A stretch of 43,420 nucleotides of DNA, from UHGV virus genome UHGV-1685692; one strand, 5' to 3'. Source of the DNA: a virus. The position numbers and the translations under genes are program-made. Positions 2,631 through 3,629 of this stretch are shown in pieces; within the stretch, counting starts at the first letter, position 1; every line of letters begins with the position of its first letter. Under the pieces are notes generated by a model. It was not told the origin of the DNA. It saw only the letters and a list, made by a program, of their open reading frames with translations, and searched no databases.

Positions 2631-3629
2631 TTATCCGTTACCTCGCGACGGTTTCTGCGTGATAAACGTCTCAAGCATCTTTTCCGCAATTGCCGACCAG
2701 GTGTGACACTGGACCTTTTCAGCATTTTTCACGCGATCAACGCGAGCAATAACCTCATCCCAATCAATCCGCGACTTGATAACCATATGGTTCACCAAAG
2801 CCAGGCGATCTGGCGGAAGGCAATCGGGAGGCGTTAATACCAACGCCCCGCACATTGCCGCCTCAAGAACAGTTAATCCAAGGCTTTCGGGATGCGTAAC
2901 GATAAAAACGTCACTCTTACGCAATTCAGCTGCAAATTCGGTTGCTGGCACCGGCGTCCGCCTGTATGGAGTTACCGAAATATTCCCCGGATCAATGGTA
3001 ACCAATCCGTCATCAGTCAACGTTCTGGCCTCATACGGAACGGTCAGACGCTGAAGGTTCATAAGGATACTTAAGGAGTGATCAAAACCACTAACATCAA
3101 ATGCAGCGTGGTCTACAAAAATACGCAGAACATCGTCCGTTTTGGTTTCCAGATGGAACAGCTCCTGATTCGCTGCCCATCCAACATGTTTGTTAAAACG
3201 ATTATGACGCTCTAACCTGCCGGGATTATCCAGGTACCGCCAGGTATCATCGCGGACAGTAAAAGTAATATCGACTGGTGCCGAATCCAGCATAGAACCG
3301 TCATATACCTGGGCTACCCATCCAGAGAATCGGCGACACAGTTGCATGCCTATTTCCCTGGGTACCGTAGTAAAATACCTCAATCCTGGTGCCAAAATGG
3401 CCTTCGCAGAACATGCGGTCGCAGCAGTCAACACAGCTTCAACATAATCCTCCGGGCTTTCGACGCCAGGGGAATATGGACGATGGTATTGCAATGTTAC
3501 CCCTGCCTCACTAAAGGCGCAGGCCAGGTTATAAGCCCACATTTCCGTATATGTTTTCACATCACTGATAGCTTCAAATTTTCGCCCAATGATCAGGATG
3601 TTCATCGGCTTTTCCTCATTCCATTGCAT
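2631..3629 (-). CDS. glycosyltransferase, GT-B fold (GT4-like), translationally coupled to ban
   Basis: 332 aa; C-terminal HPESLGLTVLEAAMCGALVLTP matches the E-x7-E motif of retaining GT4 enzymes; N-terminal MNILIIGRKFE... Rossmann-like start; start codon overlaps the ban stop by 1 nt. Confidence 0.5.
   Translation of the reverse strand: MQWNEEKPMNILIIGRKFEAISDVKTYTEMWAYNLACAFSEAGVTLQYHRPYSPGVESPEDYVEAVLTAATACSAKAILAPGLRYFTTVPREIGMQLCRRFSGWVAQVYDGSMLDSAPVDITFTVRDDTWRYLDNPGRLERHNRFNKHVGWAANQELFHLETKTDDVLRIFVDHAAFDVSGFDHSLSILMNLQRLTVPYEARTLTDDGLVTIDPGNISVTPYRRTPVPATEFAAELRKSDVFIVTHPESLGLTVLEAAMCGALVLTPPDCLPPDRLALVNHMVIKSRIDWDEVIARVDRVKNAEKVQCHTWSAIAEKMLETFITQKPSRGNG

Follow-up and report, generated by a model that had tools for sequence, protein, structure and literature searches.

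In UHGV-1685692, a viral genome of which a stretch of 43,420 nucleotides was analysed (the window), an open reading frame (ORF) of 332 amino acids with an ATG start occupies positions 2631..3629 on the minus strand and encodes a GT4-like glycosyltransferase of the GT-B fold. This ORF is the already known and annotated gene dbn of phage P1. Together with pmgO, pmgP and pmgQ, dbn in P1 is most likely a dispersed copy of a mobile four-enzyme glycosylation module. The explanation that accounts best for the gene, and that we judge to be somewhat probable, makes Dbn the GT-B enzyme of this glycan-building module, with an envelope glycolipid as the acceptor.

Homologs of Dbn with 38-58% identity are found on other mobile elements, grouped there with homologs of P1 pmgO, pmgP and pmgQ. 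The order pmgO-pmgP-dbn-pmgQ is contiguous in a lambdoid contig (L106) and was confirmed as complete in phage EP_H11 (L095); both in EP_H11 and in phage IME392 a pmgP-like gene stands directly beside the dbn-like gene. Two related lambdoid contigs (L008, L097) carry an uninterrupted pmgO-pmgP-dbn-pmgQ series, with a gene for a 189-aa GT-A-like protein between pmgP and dbn, just before the terminase genes. Contiguous variants are pmgO-pmgP-pmgP-dbn-pmgQ (L102) and, in a high-GC phage contig, pmgP-dbn-pmgQ-pmgO (L004). The genes are dispersed in phage-plasmids of the Citrobacter type (L003, L009), where dbn follows pmgO-pmgP-pmgQ 5 kb downstream, and in Stenotrophomonas jumbo phages (L096), where a pmgO/P/Q-like cluster lies 14 kb from a 552-aa protein that contains the Dbn C-terminal domain. 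Among GenBank phage records, all 22 with Dbn also have PmgP.

P1 itself has pmgN-pmgO-pmgP-ppp-pmgQ at 79.5-82.1 kb behind the operator Oppp, and ban-dbn at 71.3-73.7 kb behind Oban. The two C1-controlled operons are about 6 kb apart, with tail genes 5, 6, 24, 7, 25 and 26 between them, and pmgO, pmgP, ppp and pmgQ lie beyond the left end of the window. Both operons have C1 operators and are C1-repressed, and they are therefore switched on in lytic growth. The association is conserved among P1-like metagenomic contigs, 71 of the 73 with enough flank carrying pmgO, pmgP and pmgQ at 5.9-8.4 kb from dbn. Conserved gene association and shared C1 control, like the fold and the motif of Dbn, are established features of the system.

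Several peculiarities of the cluster may be recorded here. The gene ppp, which encodes a lambda-type Ser/Thr phosphatase between pmgP and pmgQ in P1, is absent from the module of every other lineage. The official designation of pmgO, pmgP and pmgQ (P1 79592-82150; L011:3593-6151) is ‘putative morphogenetic function’, and the RefSeq product name of pmgP propagates a typo, ‘norphogenetic protein’. In the jumbo phages the module enzymes occur in fusion architectures: in these 320-kb Stenotrophomonas phages (phage RAS14, L096:15590-17248) the Dbn-like C-terminal domain of the 552-aa protein matches residues 138-331 at 26% identity, and the PmgQ-like domain forms the C-terminal part of a 438-aa protein.

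The partners of Dbn resemble glycosyltransferases of other families. PmgO and PmgP are paralogs (hhalign 98%), both with sub-threshold Pfam MptE-like matches; the PmgO profile matches Cst-II weakly, and the RefSeq name of PmgO is ‘alpha-2,3-sialyltransferase’. Judging from these profiles, both are probably enzymes of the Maf/Cst/WaaZ type that transfer an ulosonic acid activated with cytidine monophosphate (CMP). The MptE-like fold is common to PmgO/PmgP and to WaaZ (the transferase of the third Kdo, 3-deoxy-D-manno-oct-2-ulosonic acid), Maf flagellin glycosyltransferases and the Cst-I/II sialyltransferases (GT42), although all matches of the P1 proteins are below the family thresholds and the same fold is also found in pyrophosphokinases; the hhalign probability for K-12 WaaZ is 60% over 39 columns. 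The PmgQ profile matches GT8 enzymes, namely Skp1 alpha-galactosyltransferase (E 1.4e-6) and glycogenin (about 2e-3), and PmgQ looks like a GT8-like retaining hexosyltransferase. Comparison with PADLOC defence models assigned no family to Dbn, PmgP, PmgQ or the 189-aa protein and gave one insignificant match for PmgO (JAB, E 0.023).

Bacterial relatives point in the direction of surface polysaccharides. In four bacterial loci, all of them polysaccharide loci, a Dbn-like gene lies immediately downstream of an MptE-like gene; the MptE-like genes of these loci share 38-50% identity among themselves, and a precomputed WaaZ_KDO_III match is recorded for three of them. A Colwellia capsule locus (L005-7) combines a Dbn-like gene with KpsM/KpsT/KpsD-type export genes, and a low-GC locus (L098-100) encodes a Dbn-like protein 52% identical to P1 Dbn along with GT1-domain and acetyltransferase genes. 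On chromosome 3 of Brucella pseudogrignonensis (L093) GT1-domain, GT4-like and MptE-like genes are followed by a Dbn-like gene; a further Dbn-like gene shares its locus with a GT92 gene (L101), and a distant family member (29% identity) is found among GT2, epimerase and GlmS-like genes. Because the pair recurs in bacterial polysaccharide loci, MptE-like plus Dbn-like genes appear to be an old unit of surface-glycan synthesis that was captured by phages. These contexts also make likelier the host surface glycan that the preliminary description of the window had named as one possible target, and which remains plausible.

Two of these loci deserve comment. In the Colwellia locus the gene caller split the Dbn-like gene (L005:7384-8702) into a 110-aa ORF, a gap and a 233-aa ORF; tblastn aligned Dbn residues 9-326 as one segment (7713-8690), and the true start therefore lies upstream of the called one, the short representative P0023 being an annotation artefact. 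Downstream of the Dbn-like gene of L101, a 509-aa GT92-domain protein (L101:2999-4528) has an N-terminal segment 39% identical to Dbn residues 168-246, which may reflect a partial duplication or a fusion of the beginning of the Dbn C-terminal domain. A search with L098 against all complete E. coli genomes, meant to link the family to a structurally known K antigen, had no match, and by hhalign two unannotated neighbours in this locus, of 320 and 319 aa, showed a weak relationship or none.

Dbn consists of two Rossmann-like domains with an interdomain cleft, the arrangement of GT-B enzymes. Its single E-x7-E motif, ESLGLTVLE at residues 248-256 (codons E248-S-L-G-L-T-V-L-E256 at 2862..2888, minus strand, within THPESLGLTVLEAAMCG), is in the C-terminal domain, inside the only Pfam Glycos_transf_1 match. 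By chance alone the motif is expected about once per protein, and it is meaningful in Dbn because of its position and conservation rather than its mere presence. Both glutamates are invariant in an alignment of 17 homologs, which has 36 invariant columns; among 46 homologs down to 21% identity E256 remains invariant, as do H246, G261 and the pair D173-H174, and E248 is at least 90% conserved. In this respect the preliminary description, which had a GT4-like enzyme of GT-B type carrying an E-x7-E motif, is borne out, and the motif is canonical. In an hhalign comparison with K-12 WaaG, for which the reported probability is 1.5%, the motif falls on WaaG HPAYQEAAGIVLLEA. Dbn is acidic (pI, the isoelectric point, 5.6) and has no transmembrane segment; the enzyme, of about 36 kDa, is probably soluble and cytoplasmic, and its GT4-like signature of retaining glycosyltransferases is made up of H246, E248-x7-E256 and the family-specific D173-H174.

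The profile search against glycosyltransferase families that had been suggested as a check gave a mixed answer: Pfam Glycos_transf_1 (PF00534) does match Dbn, yet at 25.0 bits, under the curated cut-off of 26.4, and only over the C-terminal 87 residues (229-315), while NCBIfam returned insignificant matches only and no functional assignment. Some cluster representatives, P0001 with 98% identity among them, have a precomputed PF00534 match. In sequence searches of the PDB neither Dbn alone nor the profile of its family matched a glycosyltransferase significantly, and a profile search built on 46 divergent family members reached no named or characterised homolog. An exhaustive profile search among 1.84 billion proteins found 377 cluster representatives at E<=1e-3. 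At the level of sequence profiles, the Dbn family is a small and distinct GT-B family under strong constraint, which does not merge with mainstream GT4. Retaining GT-B enzymes of CAZy family GT4 (BshA, GlgM, PimA/PimB', sucrose-phosphate synthase, WaaG, WaaB) are 10-14% identical to Dbn, which differs from them in its short length (324 aa) and in an invariant D-H that seemingly replaces the GR...KG-type phosphate motif. Dbn is best called GT4-like and is not a proven GT4 member, since the sequence match is marginal, the family profile is limited to the 377 representatives and the phosphate-binding stretch has no counterpart in the low-probability WaaG alignment. A PDB match to KtrA (7e-5) was discarded as uninformative; it is the sum of two copies in a tandem fusion, each insignificant, and concerns a Rossmann segment of the N-terminal domain.

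How such a module might work can be outlined as follows. PmgO and PmgP would transfer a CMP-activated ulosonic acid, which in E. coli K-12 would mean Kdo; to our knowledge, CMP-Kdo is the sole CMP-activated ulosonic acid in K-12. Dbn would add a hexose in concert with this Kdo-type step. We infer that the sugar which receives these additions belongs to an envelope glycolipid, our leading guess being lipid A-core, which serves P1 as receptor. The module brings no genes of its own for making sugar nucleotides or for a flippase, a polymerase or export, and it would therefore have to rely on host donors and work from the cytoplasmic side on an acceptor that already exists. The resulting change of the surface in lytic growth could, for example, mask the receptor and so stop progeny or superinfecting phages from adsorbing to infected cells and debris. 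A tentative and on balance doubtful extension is that in P1 and on at least six other unrelated phage backbones the module builds a short Kdo- and hexose-containing oligosaccharide in lytic growth; a remodelled lipopolysaccharide (LPS) core that masks the phage's own receptor would be the leading candidate, and a Kdo-type protein glycosylation the alternative.

Several observations weigh against the envelope-glycolipid reading. Knockouts have no plating phenotype on K-12: 24 viable P1 knockouts showed neither a plaquing nor an antirestriction defect (Gonzales et al. 2022; PMC9024508), and dbn, pmgO, pmgP, ppp and pmgQ are classed as nonessential on the basis of CRISPR interference and a citation of the knockout study (PMC10695390). 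Five phage records have PmgP without Dbn, which makes Dbn an optional member of the set. That LPS is the acceptor is conjecture, drawn from the ancestry of the genes and the biology of P1. The Pfam Glycos_transf_1 score falls just short of the curated threshold, and hhalign with the K-12 LPS core enzymes WaaG, WaaB, WaaO and WaaZ found remote similarity only. In the WaaG alignment (probability 1.5%) Dbn has DHAAFDVSG where WaaG has GRKG, so that the Arg/Lys phosphate pair of GT4 has no counterpart; because D-H replaces this pair in the family, the donor chemistry of Dbn could be atypical. Unlike Dbn, most K-12 core enzymes are neutral to basic, though WaaB has a pI of 6.3; this comparison of isoelectric points is not discriminating.

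The closest parallel in idea is phage serotype conversion (GtrABC, Oac), in which enzymes of temperate phages alter the host LPS, a surface glycan that can serve as receptor. Gtr systems consist of membrane proteins (a flippase, a bactoprenol glucosyltransferase and a periplasmic GT-C enzyme) and are expressed in lysogens, whereas the P1 module comprises soluble enzymes only, in repressor-controlled lytic operons. Dbn does not belong to a Gtr-type cassette: it lacks a transmembrane segment, and it is flanked in P1 by ban and a tail gene and in other genomes by genes for soluble glycosyltransferase-like proteins.

Other explanations of the module and of Dbn must be weighed against this one. The module may instead O-glycosylate a virion or host protein in the cytoplasm, in the manner of Maf with flagellin, or of GT4 and GT8 enzymes with adhesins, Skp1 or glycogenin. 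In structure PmgP comes closest to a Maf flagellin glycosyltransferase, the top PDB profile matches of PmgQ are the protein-directed GT8 enzymes Skp1 galactosyltransferase and glycogenin, and Dbn resembles protein glycosyltransferases of the GtfC/Gtf3 and GtfA types; the position of the module directly upstream of terminase and head genes in lambdoid contigs and the ‘putative morphogenetic’ naming of the pmg genes in P1 would also fit. The bacterial homologs, however, are in polysaccharide-type loci, one of them with export by an ATP-binding cassette transporter, and not beside flagellin or adhesin genes; in EP_H11 and the jumbo phage the genes are among early or accessory genes; and the knockouts form normal plaques. 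The passages of the P1 virion proteome paper that were examined do not mention glycosylated proteins, and a text search of the paper for ‘glycosyl’ has no hit. On balance a protein target is unlikely, yet the resemblances to Maf and to the GT8 enzymes of Skp1 and glycogenin make it a serious rival. A small-molecule role, in which Dbn would glycosylate a soluble metabolite or signal or drain a host sugar nucleotide, for instance in counter-defence or host takeover, seems less credible still and is best regarded as improbable. It would agree with the acidic, soluble nature of Dbn, with expression from early, repressor-controlled operons, with the occurrence of the PmgO/PmgP-type fold in pterin and thiamine pyrophosphokinases, and with the small acceptors of the top structural neighbours of Dbn: BshA (malate), GlgM (glucose-1-phosphate), BGluT (tetrahydrobiopterin) and sucrose-phosphate synthase. 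At 12% identity, though, such neighbours are not predictive of the acceptor, no defence-related PADLOC model was matched, and the steady company of GT8-like and WaaZ-like genes, together with the location in polysaccharide loci, speaks for an oligosaccharide product.

The break-up of the module in P1, the dispensability of each of its genes and the lack of evident canonical GT4 phosphate-binding residues could all be taken as signs that Dbn is an inactive remnant or moron, functionless in P1 and merely carried along. This is very improbable in view of an ORF that all 81 P1-like contigs preserve intact with 96-100% identity, predicted active-site residues that are invariant down to 21% identity, and partners retained in 71 of 73. 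Least credible of all, and close to negligible, is a link of Dbn to Ban and DNA, whereby P1 DNA would be glycosylated against restriction as by the T4 alpha- and beta-glucosyltransferases or the glycosyltransferases of 5-hydroxymethylcytosine and 5-hydroxycytosine. Phage DNA glycosyltransferases (T4 AGT/BGT, HY126 AfhGT, those associated with 5mYOX) are, like Dbn, phage-encoded and of GT-B fold, but such systems need a base hydroxylase, a hydroxymethylase or a TET-type enzyme to supply the modified base. No base-hydroxylating or hydroxymethylating companion is annotated in P1 at 1-48 kb and 66.9-87 kb, and none is found among the precomputed Pfam matches in L003-L009, L097 and L106. DNA modification, one of the substrates considered in the preliminary description, is thus unlikely, no gene of a hydroxy- or hydroxymethyl-pyrimidine pathway being seen in the annotated P1 regions or related loci, and the acidity of Dbn also counts against it. 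As far as is known, P1 DNA is readily cut and cloned and P1 packages host DNA, which counts against it too. The ban-dbn junction is broken in eight of 81 loci, and other Dbn homologs have no helicase neighbour within the flanks examined. The anti-restriction role that had been suggested along with DNA modification is disfavoured by the published knockouts, which show no antirestriction change (PMC9024508). A role in tRNA modification (glycosyl-queuosine, by analogy with the eukaryotic GT4-like QTMAN), considered on account of the tRNA-Asn in the operon, was dropped, as the module has no evident tRNA genes nearby in other phage loci, where no tRNA scan was run.

The preliminary description had laid weight on the coupling of dbn to ban, which encodes a DnaB-like replicative helicase of 456 aa (3629..4999, minus strand; Ban in the P1 annotation). 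The overlap it reported is present: in TAATG (3627..3631, minus strand) one base is common to the ban stop codon TAA and the first dbn ATG, the minus-strand junction reading ...GAGGATTATTAATGCAATGG... with a 1-nt stop/start overlap. This overlap is conditional on the choice of start, which is ambiguous between Met1 and Met9. An alternative frame from Met9 (2631..3605, minus strand; MNILIIG..., 324 aa), with a Shine-Dalgarno GAGG of its own 8 nt upstream, is probably genuine. In the alignment the Met9 position is the start in 11 of 13 full-length homologs from outside P1 (MKILIIG...). It is also the sole possible start in eight of 81 P1-like contigs, where an in-frame TGA shuts the upstream frame and AAGGAG precedes the ATG. 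In the structure model of Dbn residues 1-9 are unstructured, the first 10-residue block having a mean pLDDT (predicted local distance difference test) of 61.

Nor is the adjacency of the two genes constant. A comparison of the operon position across 81 P1-like loci gave TAATG at the junction in 71, TGATG in two and an inserted ORF in eight. The insert, a 101-aa ORF (L082:9699-10004; also L083-L086 and L089-L091), has a 4-nt overlap (ATGA) with each neighbour. Outside P1-like elements, no DnaB-like gene was found beside Dbn homologs within the flanks examined. The pairing of helicase and glycosyltransferase is judged not to be meaningful because the start is ambiguous, the junction is interrupted in eight of 81 loci and the helicase is not adjacent in other lineages; as a functional association it does not stand. 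The position of dbn next to ban looks like ordinary tight operon packing with no functional link to replication. As to sampling, the IMG/VR locus search kept 80 contigs, all near-identical and P1-like, which added no diversity, and a GTDB genome scan gave only three loci.

The C1-controlled operon with tRNAs that had been proposed around ban was recovered in full, and it ends with dbn. Its promoter carries a bivalent operator for the C1 repressor at 8167..8194, Oban a/b (the former Op72), which is in the P1 annotation and was matched with 0 and 2 mismatches in a pattern search. The window holds five C1 operator matches against 0.34 expected by chance; the three others, with one mismatch to the consensus ATTGCTCTAATAAATTT, are at 11454-11470, 27542-27558 and 29213-29229 (minus strand) and presumably represent known P1 operators of other early operons. 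Between the operator and ban the minus strand carries three tRNAs: tRNA-Thr (TGT) and tRNA-Asn (GTT) within 7356..7509, and a tRNA with anticodon CAT at 5280..5355. ARAGORN calls the latter Met and the P1 annotation tRNA-Ile2 (ileX-like, presumably lysidine-modified); the label ‘tRNA-Met’ has been carried over into newer phage records. The P1 annotation also predicts internal sigma-70 promoters for dbn, for which a scan gave no statistical support, with one site against seven expected. On the other side, dbn is convergent with the baseplate gene 5 (1951..2583, plus strand), the first of the tail-gene block that separates dbn from pmgO-pmgP-ppp-pmgQ in P1. A GC-rich hairpin between the two genes (2583..2609; RNA fold -24.2 kcal/mol, z -3.67 against shuffles) is likely a bidirectional terminator that closes the ban operon; a simple terminator scan did not list it, probably since the T run forms part of the stem.

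As regards identity, the Dbn of the window is 98.8% identical to that of AF234172/NC_005856 over residues 1-332, and a megablast of 2400-5400 against GenBank phages matched phage P1 at 99.1-99.3% DNA identity (99.1% over 2400-5364). Phage P1 Dbn (AAQ14048 / P1_gp078), P7 Glt and RCS47 Dbn are the same gene, with 98-99% amino acid identity to the window ORF. Their locus is also the same, dbn lying downstream of ban and convergent with gene 5, with no substantive difference. In P1 the glycosyltransferase label dates from the genome publication. P1 has ‘Dbn: function unknown, possible glycosyltransferase’, P7 ‘glt, putative glycosyltransferase’ and RCS47 ‘putative glycosyltransferase, Dbn’, the RefSeq product name being ‘glycosyltransferase family 4 protein’ and the corresponding PHROG 2518 being of ‘unknown function’. 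The possibility raised at the outset, that the gene might be P1 dbn with an established unrelated function, held in its first half; dbn has no such function. The window is a P1 variant nearest to MH422554, in which an SPFH-domain gene stands where reference P1 has tciABC. At 5383-6427 (minus strand) a 275-aa lipoprotein-like protein, ‘putative SPFH domain protein’ in MH422554-type P1 records, is followed by a 78-aa hydrophobic ORF. In reference P1 the equivalent position, between the tRNA cluster and the CAT-anticodon tRNA, holds tciA/tciB/tciC, which amounts to a cargo swap in the ban operon.

The annotation of dbn has long been known and its adjacency to a helicase gene carries no functional signal, so that the feature originally singled out adds little. 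What is new is the modest insight that Dbn is most likely one of four parts of a conserved glycosylation module that moves horizontally. If the module does build a Kdo- and hexose-containing oligosaccharide, on the LPS core or on a protein, this activity would be new for a coliphage that is among the best studied, and it would give a function to four P1 genes hitherto listed as ‘putative morphogenetic’ or unknown. P1 is a standard tool of genetics and each of the four genes has already been knocked out, so that the target of such glycosylation in lytic growth, whether receptor LPS, virion, host protein or metabolite, would be directly testable.

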